DNA from: Bacilli bacterium
GTDB lineage: Bacteria; Bacillota_I; Bacilli_A; Haloplasmatales; Haloplasmataceae
Direction of reading: 5' to 3'
Length of the DNA: 21,080 nt
Assembly: GCA_012516175.1 (NCBI GenBank)
Contig: JAAYWZ010000081.1
Coordinates: forward strand, 1-21,080
The translations under genes and the position numbers were made by a program. Positions 1,274 through 16,038 of this stretch are shown piece after piece. A model generated the notes under the pieces. It worked only from the letters and a program-made list of their open reading frames with translations. It searched no databases and was not told the DNA's origin. The stretch's first letter is position 1, and each line of letters starts with the position of its first letter.

Positions 1274-2647
1274 CTAAGAGGGGTTTAATTCTTGCTGGAT
1301 AATTCGTTTTTTCTTCCAGCGACCTGATAAGAAATATAATTGACCAAATAATAATGTGATTAAATAACTAATAGCGATAGCTATCCATACCCCATCAGGA
1401 CCCAGTGGTTTTGCGAGTATTTTAGCGAGTGGCACTCTAACCACCCAGAGGGCTGCGATGGTGAAGATTAATGGTGGTACAGTATCACCAGCACCCCTTA
1501 AGATACCATTAGTGATAAACATTAAACCAAATGGTATATAAGTAAAACCAACAATTCGTAAATAACGGGAGCCAATCCTTATTACCTCTGGATCTTTATT
1601 AAAGAAGCTGATAATAACTTCAGGAAAGATATATGCAAATAAAGTTATAAGGCTAGTAATACTTACGACTAGAATGGAACCCCATTTATAACCTTCTTTA
1701 ACTTTCTCATATTTTTGGGCTCCGAAACATTGTCCTGTAAAAGCAGAAACAGCTAAAGATAGGGATTGGGCTGGTAAATGGGCAAACTGATCAATTCTAC
1801 TAGTTACTCCAAAAGCATTAATGACATCACTACTATCAAAATCATTAATGATGGATACTAAGACCATCATCCCTAAAGATACTAGTGATTGTTGGATACC
1901 AGTAGGAAGACCTATTTTAATCATTTTAATCGTAAGATCTTTATTAAAGCGATAATCACTTAATTTATGGCTTATTAAGTGGAGCTTACGGTTCAGATAT
2001 ATAACTGAAAGGATAAAAGAAACTGCCTGGGAGATAAGTGTTGCGACGGAAGCTCCTTTAACTCCCAATTCTGGCAAAATCCACCAACCAACGATGAATA
2101 AGGGGTCTAAAACAATATTAAGGACACTCGTAATCGCCAAGAAGATTAATGGCGTTTTCGAGTCTCCTAAACCTCTTAAAATCGCACTAAAAACATTATA
2201 ACCAAACATGAAGATGAGACCATAGAAATAGATATTTAGATAATCTAAGGCATATTGAAGGTTTTCTGGTTTTATTTTCATTAATAAGAGAATATCTTTA
2301 CTAAAGATTAAACCAATAATGGTCATTACGATGGCACTTAAACCCAACACTAAGATAGAGTTATGAATAGTTTTATGCACCAACCCTTGGTTATTAGCGC
2401 CAGTGTATTGACTAACTAAGACACTTGTACCCATGGTAAAACCCATAATGAGGGAAACTAAAATAAATACTAAGGGGACGACGTTAGCCATAGCTCCTAA
2501 TGAATCTTTACCCACGAAACGTCCAACCCAGAATGTATCAGCAACACTATAGAAAGCTTGCAGAAGGTTTCCAATTAATAAGGGAATAGAGAATTTGACC
2601 AGATTCACTAAGACGCTTCCTTCGGTTAAATCGTACTTATTTTTCAC
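1274..2647 (-). CDS. MATE family multidrug efflux transporter (NorM/DinF-like)
   Basis: 457 aa with 12 predicted hydrophobic helices. The protein starts MKNKYDLTEGSVLVNLVKFSIPLLIGNLLQ...AFYSVADTFWVG, typical of the MATE family. Start codon is GTG, with RBS AAAGGAG 8 nt upstream. Confidence 0.85.
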   Translation of the reverse strand: MKNKYDLTEGSVLVNLVKFSIPLLIGNLLQAFYSVADTFWVGRFVGKDSLGAMANVVPLVFILVSLIMGFTMGTSVLVSQYTGANNQGLVHKTIHNSILVLGLSAIVMTIIGLIFSKDILLLMKIKPENLQYALDYLNIYFYGLIFMFGYNVFSAILRGLGDSKTPLIFLAITSVLNIVLDPLFIVGWWILPELGVKGASVATLISQAVSFILSVIYLNRKLHLISHKLSDYRFNKDLTIKMIKIGLPTGIQQSLVSLGMMVLVSIINDFDSSDVINAFGVTSRIDQFAHLPAQSLSLAVSAFTGQCFGAQKYEKVKEGYKWGSILVVSITSLITLFAYIFPEVIISFFNKDPEVIRIGSRYLRIVGFTYIPFGLMFITNGILRGAGDTVPPLIFTIAALWVVRVPLAKILAKPLGPDGVWIAIAISYLITLLFGQLYFLSGRWKKKRIIQQELNPS

Positions 2648-2721
2648 TAGTTCTAACTCCTTTGCTTATTATGTTAGGTTTATTATAAAATATGTTGTTT
2701 CGATGTTCAAGAATTTATCAA

Positions 2722-3048
2722 TTAAATATCACCGCCGCCACTTTCGTATACATATTTTAATAGATATAATGAAGCTATACAAGCATATATCCGACCCATC
2801 AATAAATGTCGATATGCTAGTTCAAGTTTGGGATCTTTATCTTCTTTCTTTTGATATTCCTCATAAGTGTTAATAGCTGTAGTTAAATCTAAGAAGTTAG
2901 ATAATGTTTCTAAATATGCTGCAAAAAGATTATATATTTTTTGCTTATCAGAATCGTTATTACTTGGGAAGATCGATTTTTGGATAATTAAAAAAGACGC
3001 AAAAAAACTCATGATATCGCTTAAATCATCAAGATTAATTTCCTTCAT
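2722..3048 (-). CDS. Hypothetical 108-aa protein upstream of and co-oriented with the MATE gene
   Basis: ORF with a plausible but weak RBS (gagaagag). I recognise no motif. It ends 74 bp before the MATE start. Confidence 0.35.
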   Translation of the reverse strand: MKEINLDDLSDIMSFFASFLIIQKSIFPSNNDSDKQKIYNLFAAYLETLSNFLDLTTAINTYEEYQKKEDKDPKLELAYRHLLMGRIYACIASLYLLKYVYESGGGDI

Positions 3049-3135
3049 AATAACACTCTTCTCTTGCTTATCTAATATAGAATATCAGATTATTAGATAA
3101 AAGATTATAAAATAAATGTACTAAACAGGAAAATT

Positions 3136-3178
3136 TGACTCTTATCATATTTATTTTATGATAGGGTTATGCTATAAT
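3136..3178 (+). promoter_or_regulatory. Candidate sigma-A promoter(s) for the ferredoxin gene
   Basis: TTGACT (3136–3141), 16-nt spacer, then TATGAT. Separately there is an extended -10, TGcTATAAT (3170–3178). The 12-mer atagggttatgc (3161–3172) lies between them and is repeated upstream of the next gene. Confidence 0.45.
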
Positions 3179-3213
3179 TATTGATGTATTAAACAAAAGA
3201 AAGGAATGGTAAA

Positions 3214-3408
3214 ATGAAAGCTTTTGTTGATAAAAATACTTGTATCGGTTGTGGTCTTTGCCCAACTATCTGTCCAGATATTTTCCGTATGGATGACGAT
3301 GGTTTAGCAATTGCGGAAGACATTGATATTCCTGAAGACATTCTTCCTAGCGCAAAAGAAGCAGAAGAAAATTGTCCTTCAAATTCCATAACGGTAGATA
3401 ACATGTAA
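3214..3408 (+). CDS. fdx: Single-cluster 4Fe-4S ferredoxin
   Basis: 64 aa, MKAFVDKNTCIGCGLCPTICPDIF...EENCPSNSI. It has the CxxCxxC...CP ligand pattern and the acidic character of small clostridial/Thermotoga-type ferredoxins. RBS is AAAGGAATGG. Confidence 0.85.
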   Translation: MKAFVDKNTCIGCGLCPTICPDIFRMDDDGLAIAEDIDIPEDILPSAKEAEENCPSNSITVDNM

Positions 3409-3432
3409 AGTAGCGTTTCGCTACTTTTTTTA
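3407..3432 (+). terminator. Rho-independent terminator of the ferredoxin gene
   Basis: gtagcg (3410–3415) – ttt – cgctac (3419–3424), followed by TTTTTTT (3425–3431). It begins right after the stop codon at 3406–3408. Confidence 0.85.
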
Positions 3433-3547
3433 TTAATGATAAATTGATTAATAATTATTAAATCGGACTTAAAAATTAAAAAAATATTGGTAAATTATGA
3501 CAAATATTGTAAAATAGGGTTATGCGTAGATTAGAGGAGAGATTACG

Positions 3548-6265
3548 TTGAAAAAGCGGAAGAGAAGTATAAGGCGAAGTATCAATCTATCATTGATTTT
3601 AATGGTGGTATTACTGGTCCTATCGATATTATGTTATCATTGCTTTAACAAAGAACGGGATAACTTAGAAAATACTACTAGTAAATTCAATAAATTGTTC
3701 TTATCTACTAATCAGTTAACTAACACTGTTTTCGAAATGGAACGTTTAATGAGTTTATATATAAAGGATAAAAATGTAGATGCTTATGAGGAGTATTTAG
3801 GTGAGTATTATAAATTTGAACATAATAGTTTTTTAACTGATGCTTTACTGTATCACTATCCGTTTTATGATGACGCCAAAGTGATTCATGAGATGATTAA
3901 AAAGTTACGTGATACTCACGCCGAAGGGACAATTGGGACACATGAACCAATAGTGGTAAAATTAGATAATTTTATCACCCGCATAACCCAACACCAGTTA
4001 GAATTAGAACAGCATCTTAATCGCCAAGTTAAATATCTTCAAGAATTATTTATTATTACAACGACAGCGACAATTTGTTATGGTTTATATTTTATCTTAA
4101 GATTATATTTCATTGTCGTAAAACCAGTTATAGATAATCAATCAATTTTAAAAGCCATTAACGAAGGACAGGAAGACTTACGTTTAATCTATAAATATAA
4201 TAATGATATTTCTGAGTTGTTTCATGGTTTAAATAAATATATTGATATTTCCCAAAACAGTATAAAACTAATCGAAGATCAATATAATCGCTTAAGAATT
4301 TATTCTGATTTTGGTGAAATCAACTTTGTCGAATATGACGCTACAGAAGAAATTATCAAAATTACTTTCTGTGCTAAACTAGTTAAACGCTGTAATTACG
4401 ATAGTAGTAATAAAACGTTTACCCTTCATGAGTTCGCTAAGATGATTCATCCTGATGATTTGCCAGTTTTTCAAGAAGCAGTAGAAGCTATTAAAGCTAG
4501 AGAAGACCGCGAATACAGGGTGGATTTACGCTTAAAATACCCTAATTGTGAAGATTATATGTATATATCAACTATTGGGCAAATATATCACGACAATGAT
4601 TTAACCTTTATGGGAGTCCAATTAGATATTACCTACTTAAAAGAAATCCAAATGAAATTGGCTGAGCAAGAAGAAATGTATCGCCTAATTATCGAAAATA
4701 CTTCAGACTTAATAGGGAAGATAAGTCCTGAAGGTAAACTCCTCTTTGCGAGTAAGGCTTATATTGAAACCTTTAGAGGTGTAAGAACTTATATTGATGA
4801 ATATGACCATTTAGTAAAAGTGATGAACAAAGATTGGTTCAAGAATATCTTTAAACCGCCTTACTCAACTAGAGAAGAAATTCTAGTGGAAACTACATAT
4901 GGTGATCGCTGGATTTCATGGCATAATGATGCTGTGATGAATGAGAATAATGAAGTAGAATACATCATTACAGTAGGACATGATATCACCGAAATCAAAC
5001 GGATGTATGATAAGTTAAAATATGATTCAGAACATGACTATTTAACAGATTTACTGAATCGGCGCGGTTTATATGGAAAATTGGACGAATTTAGTTCCTA
5101 TAATAGTCTCGCTGCTTTCTTTATTGATTTAAATAACTTCAAAAATATTAACGATTTATATGGACATGAGATTGGAGATAAAATTATAACCCTAATTGCA
5201 CAAGACTTAGCGAGTTTTCCCCATAGCAATCTCATCATTTCCCTCTTATCTGGTGATGAGTTTGTCATTCTCGTACCTAACTACAATGAAAATGGTTTGC
5301 TTGATAAAGTAAAAGAATATTTAAATAAACACATGAATATCACGTATCAAATTGATGGTATTGATATCTTTATCTCTACTTCAATTGGCTATGCTCTATA
5401 CCCTGATGATACATTAGATATCGAAACATTGATATCATATGCTGATATCGCGATGTATGAATGTAAGGTATCTCATCTCAATGAGTGTCTAAGATTTAAT
5501 CCACGGATGTATGAGACCGTTAATAAACGAGTGAAGATTGCCAATGACCTTAAACAAGCGATTGATAAAGATGAATTTATTATCTATTTCCAAGAAATTG
5601 TTAATGTAATTACTAATAAGGTAGAATACATCGAAGCTTTAGTACGTTGGGAATCAGATAAAGGTTTATTACTACCCAAAGATTTCATTCAAGTTGCGGA
5701 AGAAACAGGATTTATGCTAGTTCTCGATAATTTAGTAATCGACAAAGCCTTGAAACAGTTTGTTGAAATTAGGAAGAATCCTAAATATGCTGATACTATA
5801 CTTTCCATTAATGTAAGTAGGTTAAATTTACTCAATAGTAACTTCCCCCCCAATCTGTATCAACATGTCTTAAAACATAGTATTAGACCACAAGACATCT
5901 GTATTGAAATAAATGAAAATACTTTTATGAATAATATCGAATACTCAAGTTATCAAATTGCTCGGTTAAGAGAATGGGGCTTTAAAATCGCCATCGATGA
6001 TTTTGGTCGCGAGTACTCATCTTTATCTATTCTTAATAAGGTTACTTTTGATATTATTAAAATAGACCGTCTCTTTGTTGATAATTTAGATTCGCAATTA
6101 AGTGTAGAAATAATCAACATGGTTAATCGAATCGCAGAAGTATATCAACATGATGTAATTATAGAAGGTGTGGAAACAAGGGAAAAAGTTGAACAACTGA
6201 AGCATTTAGGCTGTTACTTGATGCAAGGTTACTATTTCTCAGAACCTAAAAAACTCATTGATTAG
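3548..6265 (+). CDS. Membrane-anchored sensory c-di-GMP phosphodiesterase. Two TM helices flank an ~140-aa extracytoplasmic domain, followed by PAS-like regions, a degenerate GGDEF domain (SGDEF) and an EAL domain
   Basis: TTG start with RBS GAGGAGAG 6 nt upstream. Hydrophobic segments are LSLILMVVLLVLSILCY and IITTTATICYGLYFILRLYFIVV. GGDEF domain onset is DYLTDLLNRRGLY; the signature is SLLSGDEFVILV (first Gly replaced by Ser, no RxxD I-site). EAL motifs are intact: EALVRWE, DDFGREYSSL, EGVET, QGYYFSEP. Confidence 0.85.
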   Translation: MKKRKRSIRRSINLSLILMVVLLVLSILCYHCFNKERDNLENTTSKFNKLFLSTNQLTNTVFEMERLMSLYIKDKNVDAYEEYLGEYYKFEHNSFLTDALLYHYPFYDDAKVIHEMIKKLRDTHAEGTIGTHEPIVVKLDNFITRITQHQLELEQHLNRQVKYLQELFIITTTATICYGLYFILRLYFIVVKPVIDNQSILKAINEGQEDLRLIYKYNNDISELFHGLNKYIDISQNSIKLIEDQYNRLRIYSDFGEINFVEYDATEEIIKITFCAKLVKRCNYDSSNKTFTLHEFAKMIHPDDLPVFQEAVEAIKAREDREYRVDLRLKYPNCEDYMYISTIGQIYHDNDLTFMGVQLDITYLKEIQMKLAEQEEMYRLIIENTSDLIGKISPEGKLLFASKAYIETFRGVRTYIDEYDHLVKVMNKDWFKNIFKPPYSTREEILVETTYGDRWISWHNDAVMNENNEVEYIITVGHDITEIKRMYDKLKYDSEHDYLTDLLNRRGLYGKLDEFSSYNSLAAFFIDLNNFKNINDLYGHEIGDKIITLIAQDLASFPHSNLIISLLSGDEFVILVPNYNENGLLDKVKEYLNKHMNITYQIDGIDIFISTSIGYALYPDDTLDIETLISYADIAMYECKVSHLNECLRFNPRMYETVNKRVKIANDLKQAIDKDEFIIYFQEIVNVITNKVEYIEALVRWESDKGLLLPKDFIQVAEETGFMLVLDNLVIDKALKQFVEIRKNPKYADTILSINVSRLNLLNSNFPPNLYQHVLKHSIRPQDICIEINENTFMNNIEYSSYQIARLREWGFKIAIDDFGREYSSLSILNKVTFDIIKIDRLFVDNLDSQLSVEIINMVNRIAEVYQHDVIIEGVETREKVEQLKHLGCYLMQGYYFSEPKKLID

Positions 6266-6274
6266 ATTAATAAC

Positions 6275-6306
6275 CTCCTATCAAAAGTGATTGATAGGAG
6301 TTTTAC
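6275..6306 (+). terminator. Rho-independent terminator of the GGDEF-EAL gene
   Basis: 10-bp stem ctcctatcaa (6275–6284) / ttgataggag (6291–6300), loop aagtga, then TTTTA. Confidence 0.7.
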
Positions 6307-6817
6307 ATGTAACTACTTTTTTATAAAACAGTTAACTATATATATTATTAATATACTTACCTCATTAATTACTTGTTCAAAACTTATGTACTGATTAAAG
6401 ACAATCTAATCTTTATAAATGTAATTATTGATTCACATGAAAACCTCTGTAATGTATTGTAAATTGGGCTGATATTAATTAAAACAACTTGACCTAACAA
6501 AAACGTTGATGTTACATTAAACAATATTAGTAACTTAACATTAGAGATTATTAAAGATAAATAATCAATATGTTATATCCTCATATATCAAACATCATGC
6601 TTTACTTTAGAAAACTTATATAAATATGGTCACTTAATAAGTAAATCAACAGCAAATTGAAAGAACTACTGAGAACCCTCATCAAGTTTATGGATTGATG
6701 AGAGTGAAATTTGAGGATAATAAGTTTAATTCAGTAGTTAGTAAGTTGATGAATGCTGATATTTTATTTGAGGTTATTAAGAGATTCATATAGTTATCTT
6801 TAGGGAAGGTGGTATAT

Positions 6818-7564
6818 ATGATTTATGAGAAGGGCGAGGTTGTATCTGCGACTAAATGCGATGTGAAGGCAAATTTATCATTAATAGGAGCGGTGGAACT
6901 TGTTCAAGACAATATTTGTTTTTATTTTGGAAATATGAAGATTGATCAAATCATTATGAAAAATCACCATAATGCGATTTGGATGTATACCAAGAATAAG
7001 CTTAAGTTTTATCATGACTTAACTTGGAACGATAAGTTTTTGCTTAGGTGTTTCATCTCTCAGATTACACCAGTTAGGTTAATTGTGGATACGGTATTCT
7101 TTAATGATAATAAAGACATCGCATTATATTCTAAAGTTGAGTTGTGTTTATTTGATTTAGAAAATCATAAGTTAAAACGGATTACTCCTGATATTATTTC
7201 ACCTGATTATGCCTGTCATAAATCTCTGATGGATTATTCTTATGATAAATTACTATTTGATGATAGTTTTACTTTAGTTGATGAAGTTAAAATCAGGGCA
7301 GGAAATATTGATTATTGTATACATACCAATAACATTGAATACTTGCGGTTTATTCTTAATACTTTTAATGTCAAGATGTTAGCGGAAGAAAGATTCAAAG
7401 AAGTTGAAATTCATTATTTAGCTCAATCAAAAGAGAATGATACTATTCAAATATATAAAAGTAAATGTAATGACAAACATGATTTTCTAATTAAACATGT
7501 AGCGAAAGATATTATCAAATGCCGGATTATTACCGAGCATAAATTGAGAGATAAGTTTGAGTAG
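6818..7564 (+). CDS. Acyl-ACP thioesterase family protein (FatA/FatB-like double hotdog)
   Basis: The ORF track opens at GTG 6809. The ATG at 6818 has RBS GGGAAGGTGG 5–6 nt upstream and is the more likely start. The protein (~248 aa) follows the layout of bacterial acyl-ACP thioesterases. The N-terminal hotdog reads Y.KGEVVSATKCDVKANLSL...LVQD. The C-terminal hotdog carries the conserved ...D.N.H(T/V)NN..YL... motif (NIDYCIHTNNIEYLRFIL). Confidence 0.6.
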   Translation: MIYEKGEVVSATKCDVKANLSLIGAVELVQDNICFYFGNMKIDQIIMKNHHNAIWMYTKNKLKFYHDLTWNDKFLLRCFISQITPVRLIVDTVFFNDNKDIALYSKVELCLFDLENHKLKRITPDIISPDYACHKSLMDYSYDKLLFDDSFTLVDEVKIRAGNIDYCIHTNNIEYLRFILNTFNVKMLAEERFKEVEIHYLAQSKENDTIQIYKSKCNDKHDFLIKHVAKDIIKCRIITEHKLRDKFE

Positions 7565-7714
7565 TTATAAAATGAATTATTTATCGGAACCCTAATCTTG
7601 ATATTATTGTTAAATTATGCATTTTATTTAACTTTTAGACAAGTGGTGTTATAATTAAAGAAAACATAACATTATTTGTTGTGTTGAATATTTTATATAA
7701 GAGGAGATGAAGGG

Positions 7715-8791
7715 ATGTTTAAACTTATCAGACGATTAATTACGTTGGTTATCTTACTAATCATCATCGTCCCTGCTGCCCTAATTGTACTAGCATTTAT
7801 CGATGATACTAAACCACCAATTTATCTAAAGAAAGAAGAAATCGAGCAATATCAAGATGTCGAAAAAGTCTTTCTATCCGATATTAATCAAACAGTATTT
7901 CAATTCATATCAGGGGATCGCACGCTTAGATTTCACGAAATAAATGTTAATAAAACAATTTATGGGTATTTTGCGGGATTTGATAAAGATGCGGAAAATC
8001 GCATCGGTAAAGAAATCGATAATTTTTATGTTGAGGGAATTTGGGTGGATGTTGAAGATAACCACTTAATTCTATATACCAAGTTATCATACATGAGACC
8101 ATCTACTACTATTTCTGCCAAAGTAAATGTCGATACTACGGATGATGAAGTAATATTAACTCTATCTGCTTTTAAAATAGGTAAATTATCAGTACCTAAG
8201 TTTGTCTTTACAAAATTATTAGAGAAGTTACAAATTGAAGTTAAAGAAGGCGAAATCATTGCCCAAACAGTACAACTTAAAATTAAGAAGGAAGTTATTC
8301 AACGCGAACTCGAAAACGCGATGGATAACAAGTTGATTCGCTTTGAAGATATAGTTCTTAATGAAGATGAAATAGTTATTTATTATGATTTAAATACATC
8401 AGCTAGTAGTCAAGCGGAAATCTTCCAACAAGCAATTGATGAGATAAAGAATGTTGTACAAAATGATTCGCTAGTAAGCAATATCGAAAACAAATTAAAT
8501 GAGTTGGATATACCTGCTGAAGATCAAGATAAAGTCGATGACTTTTTAGCAGATTTAAATGCGGTTAATGATTTGTTGAAGGATAAACTCAATAATCCTT
8601 CTGGGGTTACTGATGATGAACTTGAACTATTATTAGAGCTACAAGAAAGTTTCGAAACTATTCCTAATCAGCAGGAGGTTATTATAGAAGCCTTTGAAGC
8701 TACTTTTGATGCAGATTTAATCAATGATATAAACCAACTATTAAGCGATTTAGGATATAGTAGTATTGCGGATTTAATCTTTGGTAAATAA
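7715..8791 (+). CDS. Hypothetical membrane-anchored protein with one N-terminal TM helix and a long acidic, helix-rich C-terminal region
   Basis: 358 aa, RBS GAGGAG. N-terminus MFKLIRRLITLVILLIIIVPAALIVLAFI. The C-terminal third is rich in D/E/L. I recognise no catalytic motif. It has its own terminator. Confidence 0.7.
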   Translation: MFKLIRRLITLVILLIIIVPAALIVLAFIDDTKPPIYLKKEEIEQYQDVEKVFLSDINQTVFQFISGDRTLRFHEINVNKTIYGYFAGFDKDAENRIGKEIDNFYVEGIWVDVEDNHLILYTKLSYMRPSTTISAKVNVDTTDDEVILTLSAFKIGKLSVPKFVFTKLLEKLQIEVKEGEIIAQTVQLKIKKEVIQRELENAMDNKLIRFEDIVLNEDEIVIYYDLNTSASSQAEIFQQAIDEIKNVVQNDSLVSNIENKLNELDIPAEDQDKVDDFLADLNAVNDLLKDKLNNPSGVTDDELELLLELQESFETIPNQQEVIIEAFEATFDADLINDINQLLSDLGYSSIADLIFGK

Positions 8792-8804
8792 ACAAAGTGT
8801 ACTT

Positions 8805-8834
8805 GGTGCTGTTTTTACAGCGCCTTTTTATTTT
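8805..8834 (+). terminator. Rho-independent terminator
   Basis: ggtgctgt / acagcgcc, an 8-bp stem with one G·U pair and a tttt loop, followed by TTTTTATTTT. Confidence 0.75.
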
Positions 8835-8893
8835 ATTTACTAACAATATTGAATATGATATAATTAATGGTGTATTAGAAAGGGGGGCACAAT

Positions 8894-9496
8894 GTGTTCG
8901 ATTATTTTAAGAACTTAACCACAGAACAATCCATCTATTTCTATGTAGCAATATTCTTTTCTGTAGTATTCATTTTACAAACCATTTTTACTTTTCTAGA
9001 TTTAGGGGAAAGTTTTAACTTCGATGCTGATTTTGATAGTGATGTCGATGTTGATTTGGGTGATACATTAGGACTTCCATTCCACTTATTTAGTGTACGT
9101 GGAATTATAAGCTTTTTTATGGTTTTAGGTTGGAGTGGATTCCTATTAAGCAAGAATGGCGTCCATCCTGTAATAACCTTTCTTTTGGCATTTGTTTTTG
9201 GTGCTATTACGATGTTTTTAATTGCGCTAATTTATGGATTGGCGCTTCGATTAGAAGATCATGGCACAATGAGTTTAAAAAGTGCTATTGGTAAAGAAGC
9301 TGAAGTATATTTACCCATACCTGAAAATAACACTGGTATTGGTAAAGTACATGTCATTATAAATGAATCGTTGCGAGAAGTTGACGCGATTACTTATGAT
9401 GAGAATATTCCGACTGGTACGATAGTTAAAATTGTCAATGTACTTAATGATAAAGTCGTAGTGGAAAAAATAAAGAAGAGTGAAGGAGAGAATTAG
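8894..9496 (+). CDS. nfeD: NfeD-family membrane protein (YuaF-like), the partner of flotillin
   Basis: GTG start with RBS AAAGGGGGG. The N-terminal half is hydrophobic membrane segments. The C-terminal ~70 aa form a beta-rich, OB-fold-like domain (EAEVYLPIPENNTGIGKVHVIINESLREVDAITYDENIPTGTIVKIVNV). Its stop lies 1 nt before the flotillin start. This is the classic yuaF-floT arrangement. Confidence 0.75.
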   Translation: MFDYFKNLTTEQSIYFYVAIFFSVVFILQTIFTFLDLGESFNFDADFDSDVDVDLGDTLGLPFHLFSVRGIISFFMVLGWSGFLLSKNGVHPVITFLLAFVFGAITMFLIALIYGLALRLEDHGTMSLKSAIGKEAEVYLPIPENNTGIGKVHVIINESLREVDAITYDENIPTGTIVKIVNVLNDKVVVEKIKKSEGEN

Positions 9497-9497
9497 T

Positions 9498-10895
9498 ATG
9501 ATTCTTGCAGGTTCATTACTCCCCATTTTAATTTTAATTGCGGTACTGGTTGTACTTGCAATAATTTTCGTAATTAGCAGATTCCGTATCTGCCCATCCG
9601 ATAAGATTCTCGTCATCTATGGTAGGAATCGTAAAACGGAAACAGGAGAAACCAGAAGTAGTAAATGTATTCATGGTGGTTGGGCGTTTGTCTGGCCAAT
9701 TATTCAAGAATATAAGTATATGGACTTAACTCCCATGTCCATTGAAGTTAACTTGACAAATGCTTTGTCCCGCCAAAACATCCGTGTCGATGTTCCAAGT
9801 AGATTTACCGTAGGGATTTCTACTGAACCAGGCGTTATGCAAAATGCGGCTGAACGCTTACTTGGTTTAAGCCACAATGATATTAAAGCATTAGCTAGCG
9901 ATATGCTTTTCGGGCAATTACGTTTAGTTGTGGCGACAATGGATATTGAAGAAATTAACGCTGACCGTGATAAATTCTTAGCCAACATTCAAAAGAACGT
10001 TGAACAAGAATTAAAGAAAATTGGTCTCAAGCTAATCAACGTTAACGTAACCGATATTAAAGATGAATCAGGTTATATTGAAGCGTTAGGTAAAGAAGCA
10101 GCAGCGAAAGCGATTAATGATGCGCGTAAATCAGTCGCAGAAAAGAACCGCGATGGTTCAATCGGTGAAGCCAATGCGAAACAAGAAGAACGGATTAAGG
10201 TAGCACAAGCCAATGCGGCAGCAGTTCAAGGGGAAAATGATGCGAAGATTCTCATCGCTAACTCTGAAGCAAATCGTCGGGAAAAAGAAGCGATTGCGGA
10301 AAAAGTTGCGGTTACCGCAGAAAAAGTTCAACGGGCTAAAGCATTACAAGAATCCTACTTGGCCGAAGAAGAAGCCGAACTTGCGCGGGCTAAACGGGAA
10401 CGGGCAACGCTTGAAGCCGATACCTTAGTTAGAGCTGATATTGAAAAAGAAAAGATTCAAATTGAAGCGGAAGCGGAAGCTGAACGAATTAGACGGCAAG
10501 CTAAAGGGGAAGCTGATGCTATTCTCTTTAAGATGCAAGCACAAGCTGATGGTATTTATGCAATCTTAACTAAACAAGCTCAAGGTTTCGCTGAACTTGT
10601 TCAAGCTGCGGGTGGCGATCCACAATCTGCAATCACCATGATGATTACCGATAAATTACCTGAACTTGTTAAAGCACAAGTTGAAGCGATTAAAGGTATC
10701 AAGATCGATAAAGTTACTGTTTGGGATTCGCTCGGAAAAGATGGCGATGGTACACCAAGTACCGCGAAATTCATTTCTGGTATGTTAAAGTCACTTCCAC
10801 CATTTGAAGATATCTTTAAAATGGCAGGGATGGAACTACCAAGTTTCTTCAAGAGTAAGACAGAAAAAACGGAAACTGAACATGTAACTGAATAA
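9498..10895 (+). CDS. floT: Flotillin (FloT/YuaG-like SPFH-domain protein)
   Basis: The ATG at 9498 has RBS GAAGGAGAG 7 nt upstream; the ORF track begins at the in-frame GTG at 9480. It has an N-terminal TM anchor and an SPFH/band-7 domain. A long Ala/Glu-rich coiled coil follows, containing EAEAEAE flotillin repeats (KIQIEAEAEAERIRRQAKGEAD). Overall it resembles B. subtilis FloT. Confidence 0.9.
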   Translation: MILAGSLLPILILIAVLVVLAIIFVISRFRICPSDKILVIYGRNRKTETGETRSSKCIHGGWAFVWPIIQEYKYMDLTPMSIEVNLTNALSRQNIRVDVPSRFTVGISTEPGVMQNAAERLLGLSHNDIKALASDMLFGQLRLVVATMDIEEINADRDKFLANIQKNVEQELKKIGLKLINVNVTDIKDESGYIEALGKEAAAKAINDARKSVAEKNRDGSIGEANAKQEERIKVAQANAAAVQGENDAKILIANSEANRREKEAIAEKVAVTAEKVQRAKALQESYLAEEEAELARAKRERATLEADTLVRADIEKEKIQIEAEAEAERIRRQAKGEADAILFKMQAQADGIYAILTKQAQGFAELVQAAGGDPQSAITMMITDKLPELVKAQVEAIKGIKIDKVTVWDSLGKDGDGTPSTAKFISGMLKSLPPFEDIFKMAGMELPSFFKSKTEKTETEHVTE

Positions 10896-10904
10896 TTGCT
10901 GATA

Positions 10905-10941
10905 ATAAATAGGGATGTTTAACATCCCTATTATTTTTTTA
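10905..10941 (+). terminator. Strong Rho-independent terminator after the flotillin operon
   Basis: taaat-agggatg – tttaa – catccct-attat, followed by TTTTTTT (10934–10940). Confidence 0.85.
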
Positions 10942-10953
10942 TAATACCTATCC

Positions 10954-10982
10954 TTGAATAATTAAACTATTTGTCATACAAT
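10954..10982 (+). promoter_or_regulatory. Sigma-70-type promoter of the ATPase/HEPN module
   Basis: TTGAAT (10954–10959), 17-nt spacer, TACAAT (10977–10982). RBS AGGAAAGG lies at 10992–10999. Confidence 0.55.
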
Positions 10983-11001
10983 AAACTTAATAGGAAAGGT
11001 T

Positions 11002-12159
11002 GTGATAATCTTGCTAATTCAACTAGCAATTGAAAATTACCGTTCCATTAAAGACCCAATTATCTTATCGCTCCTTGCTAGTAAGGATCCTTTACATAAG
11101 TTATATCTTCGTAATAGTGCTTCATTAAGCATTTTACCTACTTCACTTATTATTGGCACCAATGGGGCAGGTAAATCCAATGTCTTTAAAGCTGTTAAGT
11201 ATCTTCAATCGATACTTCAACGAGGTATTGAGGAGATAAAGGTATATCCCCACTTTTCTAGTAAAGTAAGTGAACCAACCCGCATCGATCTTCAGTTTAC
11301 ACTTGATAATAAACGTTTTGTATATGGTGTAGATTTAGTGAAAAATGAGGTTAAGAATGAATTCTTATATGTTTATGAAGGCGAAAAGGAGACAATACTC
11401 TATCTTAAAGAAAACAATGCTTATAAATACGATGCTTCACTAAAAACAGTATTTAGTGATGCAATAAATAAAATGGGAAAAGAGAAACTCTTATTACCTT
11501 TGTTATGTGATTATACGGATCATCCTTTAATAAGGAAAGTATATGAGTTTCTTACTAAAAACATTATTGTGATTATGTCGGAAGCAGATGATGAAGCTAC
11601 AATTTATCAACAGGCATTAAGTGATTTCAAACAATTAGGTGTTGAAGAAGAAGTCAACAGTTATCTAAATGATATTGATATTGGTATAAAAGCCTTTATA
11701 AATAAAGATAATGATATTTATGTTAGCTACAATTATGGAGAAATAAACATCAATGAAGAATCGAGGGGAGTACAAAAACTCTTTACCTTATTAGTCATAA
11801 TTAATAAGGTTTTAAAAGAAGGAAAAGTACTTCTCTTTGATGAATTTGAAAAACACATGCACCAAGCCTTTATCAAATATTTTATCAATTTATTTAATGA
11901 CCCTTTAATAAATCCTAATAACGCCCAATTGCTTTTTTCCGCTCATAATACTACTTTGTTAGATTTAAGAGTTTTCCGTCGTGATCAAATTTGGCTAATG
12001 GATAAGGATTTAAAAAGTATGTCCACGGTATGTTACTCATTATATGAAATTGAAGATGTCTTAGATAATGAAAACATCGAATTAGGATACCTTTTGGGTA
12101 AGTATGGTGCAACCTATGAGTTTAAACATGGTGGGGTAGTTAAAAATGAAGAAGAATAG
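11002..12159 (+). CDS. ABC/AAA_21-type (OLD/Abi-like) ATPase. The likely true start is the TTG at 11011
   Basis: The N-terminus LLIQLAIENYRSIKDP matches the characteristic M-I-x-x-L-x-I-x-N-F/Y-R-S-I start of AAA_15/AAA_21 Abi ATPases. Walker A is GTNGAGKSN. The Walker B/D-loop region is VLLFDEFEKHMH. The C-terminal H-loop motif is QLLFSAHNTTLLD. Confidence 0.8.
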   Translation: MIILLIQLAIENYRSIKDPIILSLLASKDPLHKLYLRNSASLSILPTSLIIGTNGAGKSNVFKAVKYLQSILQRGIEEIKVYPHFSSKVSEPTRIDLQFTLDNKRFVYGVDLVKNEVKNEFLYVYEGEKETILYLKENNAYKYDASLKTVFSDAINKMGKEKLLLPLLCDYTDHPLIRKVYEFLTKNIIVIMSEADDEATIYQQALSDFKQLGVEEEVNSYLNDIDIGIKAFINKDNDIYVSYNYGEININEESRGVQKLFTLLVIINKVLKEGKVLLFDEFEKHMHQAFIKYFINLFNDPLINPNNAQLLFSAHNTTLLDLRVFRRDQIWLMDKDLKSMSTVCYSLYEIEDVLDNENIELGYLLGKYGATYEFKHGGVVKNEEE

Positions 12160-12862
12160 AACTTCCCTCTATAACCGTGAGACGACAAAAAGAAGGAAAA
12201 ACGTCCATTATATTGATAAAGAAGCGAAAGACATTATTCTAGGGTTTCGCAAAAACATTACACGTATTAAGGAACAATATAAAATAATAGATTATCTCAT
12301 GAATAAACAAGAATATGAAGCAGCTAATGATATTTTGAGATTTCAAATTGTTTATGTGATGAGTGCTTTAGACTTCTTTCTTCATGAGATCTATGTATAC
12401 TGTTTCATCAAAATCTTTAATAACGAATTACCAAAAACAGATAGATATTATGAGTATCGGGTTCCTTTAAGACTAATCGAACAAGCGTTATATGACCAAG
12501 AGAACTTTGAAATGTATCTTACCAATGCCTTAATCGAATTAAATAGTAATCTCACCTTTATGGCACCTAATCGGATTAAAGAATTACTTAACATCATTAC
12601 CCCTGAGGATGAATTTACGATTGCGGAAGAAATGTTAAAAAAGAAGGGAATAATTAAACCTGGAGTTAGGCTAATTCGTTTACTTGATGAGATTTATGAC
12701 AGGCGCAATAAGATTGCCCATCAGACTGATATCAATCATGGTTGTGATGAAAAAAATATCATCACCAAACAAGAAGTGGAATACTATGTGGATGTTATCC
12801 ATAATTTCGTTGAAGAAGTATTCAAAATTATAATCCAACAAACAAGAAAGGATTTTAAGTAA
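12146..12862 (+). CDS. HEPN-like putative RNase, the partner of the ATPase
   Basis: Its start overlaps the ATPase stop by 14 nt; RBS GGTGGGG is 6 nt upstream. The protein is all-alpha. Near the C-terminus it has a canonical HEPN R-N-x-x-x-H motif: IYDRRNKIAHQTD. Confidence 0.55.
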   Translation: MKKNRTSLYNRETTKRRKNVHYIDKEAKDIILGFRKNITRIKEQYKIIDYLMNKQEYEAANDILRFQIVYVMSALDFFLHEIYVYCFIKIFNNELPKTDRYYEYRVPLRLIEQALYDQENFEMYLTNALIELNSNLTFMAPNRIKELLNIITPEDEFTIAEEMLKKKGIIKPGVRLIRLLDEIYDRRNKIAHQTDINHGCDEKNIITKQEVEYYVDVIHNFVEEVFKIIIQQTRKDFK

Positions 12863-12876
12863 CTTACTTAAAATCC
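12850..12876. terminator. Perfect 13/13 palindrome filling the gap between two convergent genes; candidate bidirectional terminator
   Basis: ggattttaagtaa c ttacttaaaatcc. It overlaps the HEPN stop codon (12860–12862) and abuts the stop of the minus-strand thioesterase (12877–12879). The flanking T-runs are only modest. Confidence 0.5.
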
Positions 12877-13296
12877 TTAATCTTTATGAATCAATTTCAG
12901 ATAAACAGCATAGATGTCAGGGGCTTTTTTATTAATCTTGGTGATTTGAAAAGTCTCCTTGTCAACAGAGATTAGAGTAACTTGACCCTTGGCTTTAAGT
13001 TCACCAGTATCATTATAGATAGTTTGCTCGTAGGTGGTTTTAATTGCGTTAAAATCAACAACTTTAGTTTCTACATAGATTTTTTCTCCATAAAAACAGG
13101 GTCGAAAATATTCGATATGAACTTCACGAACGGGGAAAAGCAGGCCACGATTCTCTAAATCAACATAATCAAATCCTAAATCTTTGATAAAGTGCGATCG
13201 TGCTACCTCAAACCACACCAGATAATTCGCATGATAAACAACCCCCATTTGGTCCGTTTCACTGTAACGAACTTCGATTTCAGTTCTTGATATCAT
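12877..13296 (-). CDS. YbgC/4HBT-family acyl-CoA thioesterase (hotdog fold)
   Basis: 139 aa. MISRTEIEVRYSETDQMGVVYHANYLVWFEVARSHF is the hallmark N-terminus of the 4-hydroxybenzoyl-CoA thioesterase/YbgC family. RBS is GAGGTG. Confidence 0.85.
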   Translation of the reverse strand: MISRTEIEVRYSETDQMGVVYHANYLVWFEVARSHFIKDLGFDYVDLENRGLLFPVREVHIEYFRPCFYGEKIYVETKVVDFNAIKTTYEQTIYNDTGELKAKGQVTLISVDKETFQITKINKKAPDIYAVYLKLIHKD

Positions 13297-13419
13297 ATTT
13301 ACACCTCACTAATCAAGTTATCATATAATTATATTGATTTGCGACTTTATTTAGCTTTTTATTTTGAATTCAACTAAATTATCAGTTATAATTATGTCAA
13401 AATTAGGTAGGAGAAGCTT

Positions 13420-13896
13420 ATGAAACTAGTATTTAAAATATCCTTATTGCTTATTTGGATGGGAGTCATCTTCTACTTTTCCCATCAACCAGGAAATGTT
13501 AGTAGTGAAACAAGTCTTTTTGTGCTTAATCTTTTTAATATAATCGGTGTAGATATTAATTCTCCATTAGGAGAATTTATGCATCTAATAATAAGGAAAC
13601 TAGCTCATTTTACCGAGTATTTTATCTTGAGTCTCCTTTTTTATAACATTATTAGACCGTATACTAAATATAAATATTGGTATTCGCTACTTTTCGCATT
13701 TTTCTATGCTTGTACTGATGAACTTCATCAGTATTACATTCCTAATCGGATCGGTTCATTTATTGATGTATTGATTGATACAACTGGTGCTAGCCTGGCG
13801 ATGCTTTTAATGTATCTCATTAATCGACTTAAACCTAAAGTAAGTTCTCCATATCAGGAGGAAGAGGAATCTTTACTTCAAAAGGTTCCATCGTAA
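13420..13896 (+). CDS. VanZ-like family membrane protein
   Basis: 158 aa with RBS AGGAGAAG. It carries the VanZ signatures RKLAHFTEYFILSLLF and CTDELHQYYIPNRIGSFIDVLIDTTGA. Confidence 0.7.
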   Translation: MKLVFKISLLLIWMGVIFYFSHQPGNVSSETSLFVLNLFNIIGVDINSPLGEFMHLIIRKLAHFTEYFILSLLFYNIIRPYTKYKYWYSLLFAFFYACTDELHQYYIPNRIGSFIDVLIDTTGASLAMLLMYLINRLKPKVSSPYQEEEESLLQKVPS

Positions 13897-14731
13897 CAGG
13901 GTGGATGAGCTGTAATTTATAGGCATGTAAAGCTTGTCTTGTTATTAAGGGAGATTTACCACCATATAAATCATCGCCTAGAATGGGATGATTTAAAGAC
14001 GCAAGATGAATGCGGATTTGATGGGTTCTACCTGTTTCTAATTCTAACTCAACTAAACTATAATCTTTATGTTCCCGTTTAACTTGATATTTAGTAATTG
14101 CTTCTTGTCCAGAATTAGCTATCACCATACGATCGGATAGGTGTCTGTGCCTGCCGATTTTTTTATTTATTATACCGCTTTTTTGTTTTAAATGACCATG
14201 GACAAGGGCTAAATAACAGCGTTTGATAATTTTTTGTTCGAGTAGGACATCATATAGATTATGGGTAAAATAGTTCTTCACAAATACTATTAACCCCGTT
14301 GTATCCCTATCTAATCGATGTATATAACGAACACGATGGTTTTGGTTCGTAATCTGATAATAATAACTTACTCTATTTACTAATGTACCTAACCTATTTT
14401 TCGAATCAGGATGAACTTCTAGTTGAGGTGGTTTATTCACAACAAGGATAAAATCATCTTCATAAGCGATATCAATCGGCTTATCATCAGGAAGAAAATC
14501 AACGTCCTCATCAATAAAAATGGGTAATCTAAGCTCATCATTTTCACTTAGTTTAATAGAAAAGTCTTGCTTGATATTTTTTCCATTAAGAAATACATCT
14601 TTACTCATCCTTAAGTGATGGATGAGTTTTTTTGAACTGTGATAATGTTTTAATAATTCTAGTATCGTAAAATTATGAAAATCCTTGGATATGGTTAATA
14701 CTAAATAGTGTGACTCTTTCCAATATTTCAT
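13835..14731 (-). CDS. RluA-family 23S rRNA pseudouridine synthase (RluD/RluC-like)
   Basis: Catalytic motif HRLDRDTTGLIVFVKN, with an N-terminal S4-like region. The ORF track extends to 14761, but the ATG at 14731 (MKYWKE) has an RBS (GGTGA) whereas the ATG at 14761 has none. Its 3' end overlaps the VanZ gene by 62 nt. Confidence 0.8.
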   Translation of the reverse strand: MKYWKESHYLVLTISKDFHNFTILELLKHYHSSKKLIHHLRMSKDVFLNGKNIKQDFSIKLSENDELRLPIFIDEDVDFLPDDKPIDIAYEDDFILVVNKPPQLEVHPDSKNRLGTLVNRVSYYYQITNQNHRVRYIHRLDRDTTGLIVFVKNYFTHNLYDVLLEQKIIKRCYLALVHGHLKQKSGIINKKIGRHRHLSDRMVIANSGQEAITKYQVKREHKDYSLVELELETGRTHQIRIHLASLNHPILGDDLYGGKSPLITRQALHAYKLQLIHPVTMEPFEVKIPLPPDMENLL

Positions 14732-14813
14732 AGCATCACCCAGATTATTTGACATGAGCATATCTTTAGTTTACCATATGTAATAGAGATAATAAATGTG
14801 AGGTGTGAAAATT

Positions 14814-15620
14814 ATGCAAAACTTTTATCAAACAACGATCAAATTTCCCGAAATTGATATGGAAAAGGTGTTTAATCTTATCATAACATACGGTTTAAAG
14901 GTATTATATGCCTTAATAATTCTCTTTATTGGTCGAAGACTCATCAAATGGTTAATTAAACATCTAAATAAACACCTAGATAAGAAACATGTGGATACTT
15001 CTTTAAAAACCTTCTTGGCGCCTTTAATCAATGTAACCCTAAATATATTGTTAATTCTCTCCCTCATTGGGATGTTCGGGATTGAGGTTACTTCCTTTGT
15101 GGCAATTCTAGGGGCGGTTAGCTTATCAGTTGGTCTTGCATTTCAAGGTAGTTTGGCAAATTTTGCGGGTGGTGTGCTCATTCTCGTTCTAAAACCCTAT
15201 CGTGCTGGTGATTTCATTGAGACTGATAAGTATATTGGGGTTGTTAAGGAAATCCGCATCTTCTATACGATTCTTAATACTGTTGATAACCGTAAAGTCA
15301 TCATTCCAAATGCAAACCTCTCGAATGCGAGTTTAATTAATCATTCAGCCTATCCTTATCGAAGATTAGAGATGAAGTTTTCCTTTACTATTGATAATGA
15401 TATCGAAAAAGTTAAATCAGTAATTGAAAAGATTATTAATGAACAAGATTATGTCTTAAAGGAACCACGGCCATCGATTTTCTTTAGCGATATGAACCAA
15501 AAGAAACTCAACTTTAGCGTCTATGTTTGGGTGAATAATGCGGAGATGTTAGTAGTTCAAGATGAGCTGATGTATAAATTTAAAGCAGCATTCGATCAAG
15601 AAGGTATAAATTTAGCCTAA
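14814..15620 (+). CDS. MscS-family small-conductance mechanosensitive channel
   Basis: The ORF track opens at GTG 14805; the ATG at 14814 has RBS TGAGGTGTGA ~6 nt upstream. Pore-lining TM3 and beta-domain signature: LSVGLAFQGSLANFAGGVLILVLKPYRAGDFIE. Confidence 0.85.
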   Translation: MQNFYQTTIKFPEIDMEKVFNLIITYGLKVLYALIILFIGRRLIKWLIKHLNKHLDKKHVDTSLKTFLAPLINVTLNILLILSLIGMFGIEVTSFVAILGAVSLSVGLAFQGSLANFAGGVLILVLKPYRAGDFIETDKYIGVVKEIRIFYTILNTVDNRKVIIPNANLSNASLINHSAYPYRRLEMKFSFTIDNDIEKVKSVIEKIINEQDYVLKEPRPSIFFSDMNQKKLNFSVYVWVNNAEMLVVQDELMYKFKAAFDQEGINLA

Positions 15621-15623
15621 TAT

Positions 15624-15655
15624 AAAAAGGGACTTAATAGTCCCTTTCGTCATTT
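15624..15655. terminator. Bidirectional stem-loop shared by mscS (+) and the convergent minus-strand gene
   Basis: aaagggact – taat – agtcccttt. The loop contains the stop codon of the minus-strand gene (15634–15636). T-rich flanks on both strands. Confidence 0.6.
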
Positions 15656-15987
15656 TCTAAGAATTCATTGATTATAACGAGGGTTTCTTCACAAACTTGT
15701 GCTGTTAAAGAGGTTTTCGCATCTGAGAACTTTTCACATTCTTCTTTAGTGTCTTGAATTACTTTTGCACAAAGGCTAGTAATCTCTTTTAGATAAGGAG
15801 AATCATTGATATAGGCTTGTGCAGTATATAGGGTATAGTTATTACATTCATATAAGAGTTTTATGAGACGATTTCTTTGATTCAAATCTAAGGCATTAAG
15901 GCTATAATCAATACACTCTAAGCAGATTTGATTTAAATCATGGAGAAAATCAATGCAGTCTTGATGTAGAGCATTTTCGATGACCAT
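15634..15987 (-). CDS. Four-helix-bundle DUF326/YhjQ-like (copper-storage-protein-like) protein that has lost most of the family's Cys ligands
   Basis: 117 aa with strong RBS AAGGAGG. It aligns by eye with B. subtilis YhjQ (DSPYLKEITSLCAKVIQD vs DSPFMKEICALCADI). Only 7 Cys remain against the family's usual many CxxxC repeats. Confidence 0.5.
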   Translation of the reverse strand: MVIENALHQDCIDFLHDLNQICLECIDYSLNALDLNQRNRLIKLLYECNNYTLYTAQAYINDSPYLKEITSLCAKVIQDTKEECEKFSDAKTSLTAQVCEETLVIINEFLENDERDY

Positions 15988-16038
15988 ATATTAACCTCCT
16001 TGCCTTATTATTATGAGAAAATTTTGGAAGATTAATAC

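Follow-up and report, generated by a model that had tools for sequence, protein, structure and literature searches.

A candidate defence module pairing an AbiLi-lineage ABC ATPase with a predicted HEPN ribonuclease in Haloplasmataceae

The window analysed here is a stretch of 21,080 nucleotides from a Haloplasmataceae (Bacilli) genome assembly (GCA_012516175.1, contig JAAYWZ010000081.1, positions 1 to 21,080 of the forward strand), and it contains two overlapping genes, one for an ATPase and one for an HEPN protein. We propose that they form a two-component toxin-sensor module with the logic of AbiL and PARIS, in which an ATPase of the AbiLi lineage would act as sensor and regulator and a predicted ribonuclease (RNase) of the RiboL-PSP HEPN family as effector; we put the probability of this reading at about 0.6. 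The pair is most likely an unnamed relative of these anti-phage systems, with an RNase in place of the Toprim nuclease. In substance, an earlier note made from the DNA letters had described the same thing, an uncharacterised ATPase-gated HEPN candidate defence module, and that description appears largely right; the open reading frames (ORFs) and motifs that it quoted are all present, each in its place.

The ATPase and its HEPN partner

The first protein is an ABC ATPase (Rad50/SMC-head-like) of the AbiLi lineage. It scores 85.7 bits against Pfam AAA_21, whose gathering score is 27, matches AAA_15 as well, and finds its best PADLOC match in AbiLi (PDLC02335; 1.7e-66, 222 bits), at the top of 60 matches; AriA is the second model with 90 bits, and HEC-01A, HEC-02A and PtuA match weakly. 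Together with a structural model predicted to take the ABC fold, these matches bear out the earlier attribution of the protein to the AAA_21/AAA_15 'Abi' ATPases. The model is closest to the heads of Rad50 and SMC proteins, not to AAA+ proteins, and has a helical insert of ~80 amino acids (aa) where Rad50 has its coiled coil; compared with immune ATPases it scores 18.0 against the retron Ec83 ATPase, 17.3 against PtuA, 15.1 against AriA, 13.0 against OLD and 12.6 against GajA. A sequence search of the PDB gained little (OLD family at 2e-4). The motifs of the protein are given in Table 1, with residue conservation counted over 56 homologues; among them LLFDEFEKHMH, previously read as D-loop-like, is present and is actually Walker B plus D-loop. 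In the Haloplasmataceae lineage the ATPase is about 30-40 aa shorter than AbiL ATPases.

The second protein, the putative RNase effector (toxin), is predicted from its sequence to belong to Pfam HEPN_RiboL-PSP (PF18735), which it matches with 45.5 bits against a gathering score of 28.4 over profile positions 13-190 of 191. Its 238 aa are modelled as an all-alpha protein with the HEPN helical-bundle fold, resembling HepT in fold only, and the earlier HEPN call therefore holds. RloB and DUF4435 were sought in Pfam and AbiLii and AriB in PADLOC without a match, and the protein matched no other PADLOC or NCBIfam profile. The PADLOC models presumably include PD-T4-2, PD-T4-5, PD-T7-3 and ApeA, none of which matched it. 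One PHROG match is not annotated with a function, a PDB sequence search was uninformative, and none of 259 HEPN relatives bears a name in the literature and annotation sources.

An exhaustive profile search with the HEPN protein returned 769 clusters (50% identity) at E <= 1e-3, and conservation was assessed in the 140 most similar of these, whose median identity to the query is 27%. The R and H of the RNKIAH motif, on whose conservation the HEPN reading leans, are present in all 140 (Table 1), and R187, N188 and H192 are invariant in 12/12 close homologues; R65 and D195 are near-invariant among the 140 as well. The HEPNs linked to an ABC ATPase also have a basic N-terminal extension in common, which is missing from relatives linked to a ParA-type ATPase (see below), whose alignment begins at profile positions 28-31. 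Residues 1-24 of the model have low predicted confidence (pLDDT). This tail might be an ATPase-docking element, for which it is the candidate.

The ATPase and HEPN genes are obligately linked and co-evolving. A scan of species-representative genomes yielded 28 HEPN loci, and at every one of the 18 informative ones (HEPN at least 28% identical, readable upstream DNA) a homologous ATPase (371-559 bits) lies directly upstream on the same strand; the hosts are Haloplasmataceae/Bacilli metagenome-assembled genomes (MAGs), Clostridia, Selenomonas and Ruminobacter. Among IMG/VR viral contigs the ATPase precedes the HEPN relative in 16/17 loci, all found with the broader alignment A3, a scan with the narrow alignment A1 and its clade-specific patterns having given nothing. 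The pairing first described from the window is thus met again elsewhere. Spacing is equally constrained: in a non-redundant set of 30 pairs, the two genes overlap in 17 and stand 0-20 nucleotides (nt) apart in 12, which places 29/30 within 20 nt or overlapping. The 14-nt overlap in the window is consistent with translational coupling, which is probable.

Degraded copies of the module were found at three loci: L006 (5247-5942), where the HEPN gene is broken into 57-aa and 158-aa ORFs; L023 (265-1054), where it is split; and L024 (212-1464, Ruminobacter), where the ATPase is frameshifted. Together with an empty site, L078, they are as expected for an accessory, possibly costly gene pair.

Relation to known ATPase-nuclease systems

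AbiL of Lactococcus, with the RloA/RloB-type pairs, has an ATPase of the same family, to whose AbiLi model phage-borne relatives of the window protein score 276 bits. Both types are two-gene operons with the ATPase first and the genes overlapping, and both are carried by phages. They differ in the partner, which is HEPN here and RloB/Toprim-OLD-type AbiLii in AbiL. ATPase relatives at a greater distance (about 29% identity) are partnered by an RloB protein, as were 18 of the 22 loci with a clear ATPase match in an ATPase-anchored viral scan, and a Vibrio litoralis pair in a P2-like prophage (L007) is a complete AbiL in PADLOC, with AbiLi at 345 bits and AbiLii at 94 bits. Since AbiLii is recognised in that control and the HEPN partners checked gave no AbiLii, RloB or DUF4435 signal, true AbiL membership is ruled out. 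A neighbour-joining tree was built from 49 non-redundant ATPases; its 29 HEPN-linked members form one split (bootstrap 96/100), each sequence has a nearest neighbour with the same partner type, and the mean identity between HEPN-linked and RloB-linked ATPases is 29%. On the strength of this single split and these same-partner neighbours, we conclude that the pair is a sister lineage of AbiL, most likely born of one ancient swap of a Toprim-type for an HEPN effector.

PARIS offers a second comparison. There the ABC ATPase sensor AriA keeps its nuclease effector sequestered; this effector, the tRNase AriB, is encoded by a gene of its own and is set free by a trigger, and by analogy the RNA-directed outcome may be shared. 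AriB, however, is a DUF4435/Toprim protein whereas the partner here is HEPN, and the ATPase scores far lower against AriA than against AbiLi. The Toprim-type partners of AbiL and PARIS had been given with some uncertainty in the earlier note, and correctly so; its point that the partner here differs in type from those of AbiL, PARIS and Septu stands too, as the second protein has no Toprim, RloB, DUF4435 or HNH domain. HEC-01/02/03 and Septu likewise combine an ABC ATPase with a variable nuclease (Toprim, NERD, PIN or HNH), but use other ATPase subfamilies and other effector folds, with no HEPN partner.

Several further identities were considered and rejected. Septu and Gabija are excluded by the lack of an HNH protein (PtuB), a fused Toprim or a GajB helicase in protein 2 or the neighbours, and an HEPN-MNT (HepT/MntA) pair by the upstream gene, which encodes an ABC ATPase, with no nucleotidyltransferase nearby. 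A type III toxin-antitoxin (TA) or AbiD-F-like system with an RNA antitoxin finds no support in positions 10500-13500, in which neither a tandem repeat array nor any Rfam family above threshold was found.

The earlier note had also called the pair a split PrrC/RloC-type system, which is analogy and not homology. In PrrC and RloC an ABC ATPase is likewise joined to an HEPN RNase (R-x4-6-H) and translation is shut off under NTPase control in infection. Those are single polypeptides, whereas two separate ORFs are found here; PrrC is linked to type I restriction-modification (RM; hsd) genes, whereas the neighbouring ORFs scanned (1274..15620) include no RM gene; and RloC has a long coiled coil and a zinc hook where the model of the present ATPase has only its short helical insert. 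Descent from a split PrrC or RloC is ruled out, as the ATPase is of AbiLi lineage, the HEPN protein is of another family, RM linkage is lacking, and there is no match (E <= 1) to AAA_13, which we take to be the Pfam family of the PrrC/RloC ATPase. PrrC is also not found among the 25 best PADLOC matches of the ATPase.

A PrrC-like mode of action might still be imagined, in which a constitutive complex is switched in situ, the ATPase activating the RNase on nucleotide binding or hydrolysis or on a DNA-damage signal and the HEPN protein being inert alone. The tight translational coupling would suit such a stoichiometric complex, PrrC and RloC unite ABC ATPase and HEPN anticodon nuclease in one regulated polypeptide, and RloC is described as Rad50-like and DNA-responsive, which sits well with an ATPase model nearest to Rad50 heads. 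We nonetheless regard this mode as improbable, because the homology to AAA_13, the place for PrrC among the best PADLOC matches, the coiled coil or zinc hook and the linked type I RM system are all wanting, and because AbiL and PARIS, to which the pair is nearest by descent, are reported to work by sequestration and release.

Parts of the AbiL-like pairing that we favour have been noted before. Anantharaman et al. (2013) described the Ribo L-PSP-HEPN family (PF18735), to which protein 2 belongs, as predicted to be active and distantly related to AbiD/AbiF, with an endoRNase L-PSP fusion and an 'operon with ParB', and do not mention an ABC ATPase partner; unlike in that description, the family is found here downstream of an ABC AAA_21 or a ParA/MinD-type AAA_31 ATPase. 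NetFlax (PNAS 2023) links an AAA ATPase hub of the AAA_15/21 type, D29, to Toprim, RloB, HNH and the HEPN node M61, and gives one sentence to the D29:M61 example, which comes from Anoxybacillus flavithermus WK1 (Bacillota) and is in antitoxin-toxin order. That example shares with our pair the ATPase-first order and the HEPN protein in second place, the comparison being by HEPN label and not by sequence. The same study tested three pairs in which a D29-hub ATPase neutralises its toxic partner; the one AAA-toxin pair that it challenged with phages, in E. coli, gave no protection.

The HEC preprint of Payne et al. and a 2026 review of lactococcal Abi systems treat the ABC ATPase with a variable nuclease as a general theme, and a review table applies PF18735 to PD-T4-2, PD-T4-5, PD-T7-3 and ApeA as a catch-all label for HEPN. 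A literature search for 'RiboL-PSP' and 'PF18735' gave that table and one unrelated preprint, and an earlier description in Krishnan et al. 2020, on ABC ATPases, is possible. An ABC ATPase with a swappable nuclease is therefore already recognised and the AAA-HEPN pairing has already been noted computationally, so that the novelty is below that first implied; the pair extends a well-established theme and does not overturn current thinking.

Proposed mechanism, mobile contexts and wider family

By analogy with AriA and AriB in PARIS, and with the neutralisation of toxic partners by D29-hub ATPases, we propose a mechanism of sequestration and release. In the uninfected cell, oligomers of the ATPase would hold the HEPN protein inactive, possibly through its basic N-terminal tail. 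On sensing a phage-derived trigger, the ATPase would undergo an ATP-dependent rearrangement that frees or re-orients the HEPN subunits, whose dimerisation would complete the R-x4-H active site. The active HEPN RNase would then cut cellular RNA, either tRNA or mRNA, so that translation stops and the infection is aborted.

The settings of the pair in other genomes are a classical defence-gene signature at the handful of loci inspected. In one prophage it lies between the integrase and endolysin/tail genes (L038), in another between primase and terminase/portal genes (L051), and in a region resembling an integrative and conjugative element (ICE) it accompanies a ~2650-aa polyvalent SNF2 helicase and a DUF3991-Toprim primase. 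In Clostridia its site is a hotspot of the chromosome that is flanked by conserved VTC/Metallophos/Rex/AdhE genes and whose other occupants vary and include RnlA-RnlB, HamA with a helicase (Hachiman), type II RM and methyltransferase clusters. Homologous pairs thus sit in prophages and a defence hotspot, the latter being the kind of surroundings that the earlier note proposed to check for in related genomes. Firmicutes from gut and rumen often carry the family, as do their prophages.

At two loci of this clostridial hotspot (L056, 11214-13804; L057, 11214-13073) a 619-aa AAA_15/AAA_21 ATPase is encoded ~1.5 kb downstream of the pair, with two small ORFs between them. In L056 it is followed by an RNase III-domain protein of 221 aa, which may represent a further pairing of ABC ATPase and RNase.

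Carriage on the ICE-like element and in prophages would also suit addiction, and it is here that a plain TA module has to be weighed, one that serves addiction or stress with the HEPN RNase as toxin and the ATPase as antitoxin, and with no dedicated phage sensing. NetFlax classes hub D29 as antitoxin and reports the HEPN example in the corresponding gene order, its one challenged AAA pair did not protect E. coli, and the window copy has no defence neighbours. However, an ATPase of ~380-430 aa with fully conserved catalytic motifs exceeds the needs of a simple antitoxin, AbiL and PARIS, its nearest kin, act against phages with the 'antitoxin' ATPase as sensor, and the sharing of a variable hotspot with RnlAB, Hachiman and RM speaks for defence. 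A TA role can also coexist with one in abortive infection, and we consider a module restricted to the former unlikely.

Several points weigh against a phage-sensing module all the same. For this family, toxicity and RNase activity are predictions, as are complex formation and phage resistance; NetFlax saw no phage protection with its one AAA-toxin pair challenged in E. coli; the association with defence genes comes from the few loci above and not from genome-wide enrichment; the neighbours in the window are all housekeeping genes; and the synteny of the pair across Haloplasmataceae is not what mobile defence genes usually show, and makes a domesticated role possible.

If the pair is nevertheless a working defence system, it marks an annotation gap, in which the ATPase is called as AbiLi and the whole system goes uncalled as PADLOC lacks a model for the partner. 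It would also be a natural experiment in effector swapping, with one ATPase lineage driving either a Toprim nuclease or an HEPN RNase, and a comparison of the HEPN and RloB branches could reveal how one kind of sensor, the ABC ATPase, binds and lets go of effectors unrelated to one another.

Distant RiboL-PSP HEPN relatives (23-30% identity) have an overlapping ParA/MinD-type ATPase upstream instead of the ABC ATPase. This partner is about 340-370 aa long and matches Pfam AAA_31 at 1e-26 to 1e-32. Such loci occur in Chloroflexaceae, Arthrospira, Stigonema, Nostoc and Trichormus (L025-L027, L029, L031, L033, L034), on a Burkholderia arboris megaplasmid (L037), in the Pseudomonas Pf-like phage WX-TY (L036, 2676-4308) and on an IMG/VR contig (L047), and in PADLOC they have marginal matches only. 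The ParA/MinD-type ATPase with HEPN looks like a second, apparently unnamed two-gene module. The parallel pairing, which extends to Pseudomonas Pf phages, suggests that gating of RNases by NTPases may be a more general principle.

These two associations invite a broader generalisation, tentative enough that we rate its chances a little under even. The RiboL-PSP HEPN protein would be an NTPase-gated RNase cassette that in all clades is the second gene, after a P-loop NTPase, of an operon with translational coupling. Two unrelated NTPase classes would have been recruited, one being the AbiLi-type ATPases of Firmicutes and Firmicute phages, the other the ParA/MinD-type ATPases found in cyanobacteria, Chloroflexi, Burkholderia and Pf-like filamentous phages. 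The ABC branch would in that case form a widespread anti-phage family in its own right, as yet unnamed, that arose by one ancient Toprim-to-HEPN exchange, and the ParA branch a second unnamed system.

The locus in the window and its history

In the window, the genes around the pair encode MatE, GGDEF-EAL, NfeD-like/flotillin, thioesterase, VanZ, pseudouridine synthase and MscS proteins. The pair is found at the same site, downstream of the NfeD-like and Band_7 genes, in at least nine Haloplasmataceae-type loci; across these syntenic loci identity ranges over 72-92% for flotillin, 37-76% for the ATPase and 47-88% for the HEPN protein, the three dropping roughly in step. A flotillin-anchored metagenome scan saw the pair only in the closest relative, with 18 other flotillin loci lacking it, and at the empty site L078 (flotillin 83% identical), where the order is flotillin, peroxiredoxin, thioesterase, no ATPase or HEPN remnant was detectable. 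This indicates that in Haloplasmataceae the pair settled long ago, evolves fast and is lost now and then, and long vertical inheritance follows from its constant flotillin-adjacent site and from a divergence that tracks that of its neighbours. Its earlier portrayal as a self-contained insertion between flotillin and thioesterase is misleading here; a recent insertion or mobile island is ruled out by the conserved synteny, the housekeeping neighbours and an unremarkable GC content (about 0.29-0.32).

Such long residence raises the question of domestication, in which the Haloplasmataceae copy would have lost its role in immunity and become a housekeeping or stress RNase, for instance in ATP-controlled RNA turnover or in membrane-stress RNA decay beside NfeD/flotillin. 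The fixed NfeD-flotillin position, the roughly co-linear divergence and the entirely housekeeping neighbourhood would all agree with this. A terminator, however, separates flotillin from the pair, the flotillin association is missing outside the lineage and from the 18 pair-less loci within the scan, and at least one close relative, that with the empty site, has dispensed with the pair. The ATPase, moreover, has diverged far more quickly, to 37-52% identity at loci where flotillin keeps 72-80%, as is typical of conflict genes, and we judge domestication very unlikely. A functional tie to flotillin/NfeD is likewise judged unlikely, given the terminator between them and an association confined to one lineage.

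The terminator hairpin behind the flotillin gene is the 5' limit of the ATPase-HEPN transcription unit, and such a good hairpin makes it very likely that the pair is its own unit (Table 1). The sigma-70 promoter that the earlier note assigned to the pair is less secure: the site exists but cannot be told from background, the region having 11 promoter-like sites where shuffles lead one to expect 15.2, and taken alone it is weak evidence whose plausibility rests on its position. The palindrome reported at the 3' end as 13/13 is also present, although it measures as a longer stem; it is AT-rich, takes in the HEPN stop codon as well as the tail end of the thioesterase gene that converges on it, and is terminator-like in either direction, bounding the module on its 3' side. 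As for the ATPase start, alignments to homologues open at query residue 4, and TTG 11011 is the codon that suits the Shine-Dalgarno-like sequence; the real start is therefore probably this TTG, giving a protein of 382 aa, and the annotated GTG is probably wrong.

Table 1. Features of the ATPase-HEPN locus (positions in the window; residues in the respective protein)
Feature	Position	Residues	Strand	Remarks
ATPase ORF	11002..12159		+	385 aa from GTG 11002
Motif IENYRSI (ATPase)		10-16	+	Present
Walker A / P-loop GTNGAGKSN (ATPase)	11155..11181	52-60	+	G52, N54, G57, K58 invariant
ABC signature ESRGVQK (ATPase)	11758..11778	253-259	+	E253, S254, G256 invariant
Walker B + D-loop LLFDEFEKHMH (ATPase)	11830..11862	277-287	+	D280, E281 invariant; H287 at least 90%
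H-loop (switch) QLLFSAHNTTLLD (ATPase)	11926..11964	309-321	+	Q309, H315, L320 invariant
HEPN ORF	12146..12862		+	238 aa, co-directional with ATPase ORF
Basic N-terminal extension (HEPN)	12146..12235		+	~30 aa, motif h-x-L-x-x-R-x-E-x-x-R; common to 30 ABC-linked HEPNs
Second conserved site D76...H80 (ALDFFLHE; HEPN)	12371..12385		+	Long helix; D76, H80 each 99% of 140
Catalytic motif R187-N-K-I-A-H192 (R-x4-H), RNKIAH (HEPN)	12704..12721	187-192	+	R187, H192 100%, N188 95% of 140
ATPase/HEPN gene overlap	12146..12159		+	14 nt, ATPase stop past HEPN start
Intrinsic-terminator hairpin after flotillin (Band_7) gene	10908..10932		+	11-bp stem, then T-run; -14.4 kcal/mol, z = -4.0
Sigma-70-like promoter candidate TTGAAT-17-TACAAT	10954..10982		+	9/12 matches
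Shine-Dalgarno-like AGGAAAGGTTGTGA	10992..11005		+	Ends few nt before TTG 11011; read from sequence
Palindrome	12848..12878		both	14-bp stem + 3-nt loop; -16.1 / -16.6 kcal/mol, z = -5.7 / -5.9

A sub-threshold Rfam match to the small RNA sraA (10900-10972, - strand; 33.7 bits vs a gathering score of 56, E = 0.011) is most likely a chance similarity to the flotillin terminator hairpin underneath it.

Further upstream, the 905-aa GGDEF-EAL protein (3548-6265) is ordinary but lacks an annotation and has a long N-terminal region of ~490 aa without a Pfam match, and the overlapping NfeD-like and Band_7/flotillin genes occupy 8894-10895, the window copy of the former having no Pfam match. The same anchor lies directly upstream of the pair at L001, L002, L004, L005, L008-L010 and L060. 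In some relatives MGMT, GNAT and peroxiredoxin genes separate the pair from the thioesterase gene, and at L078 (760-1510) a 1-Cys peroxiredoxin-like gene before the thioesterase gene is seemingly broken by a stop codon. In L001, from one Haloplasmataceae MAG, a GH1 glycosidase gene, an Imm5-like immunity protein gene and a 42-aa ORF lie between flotillin and the pair (4137-6318), and further on, at 12343-16720 downstream of the pair, come a transposase (rve) and two tyrosine integrases; these insertions and integrases indicate that the flotillin-side site can gather accessory DNA.

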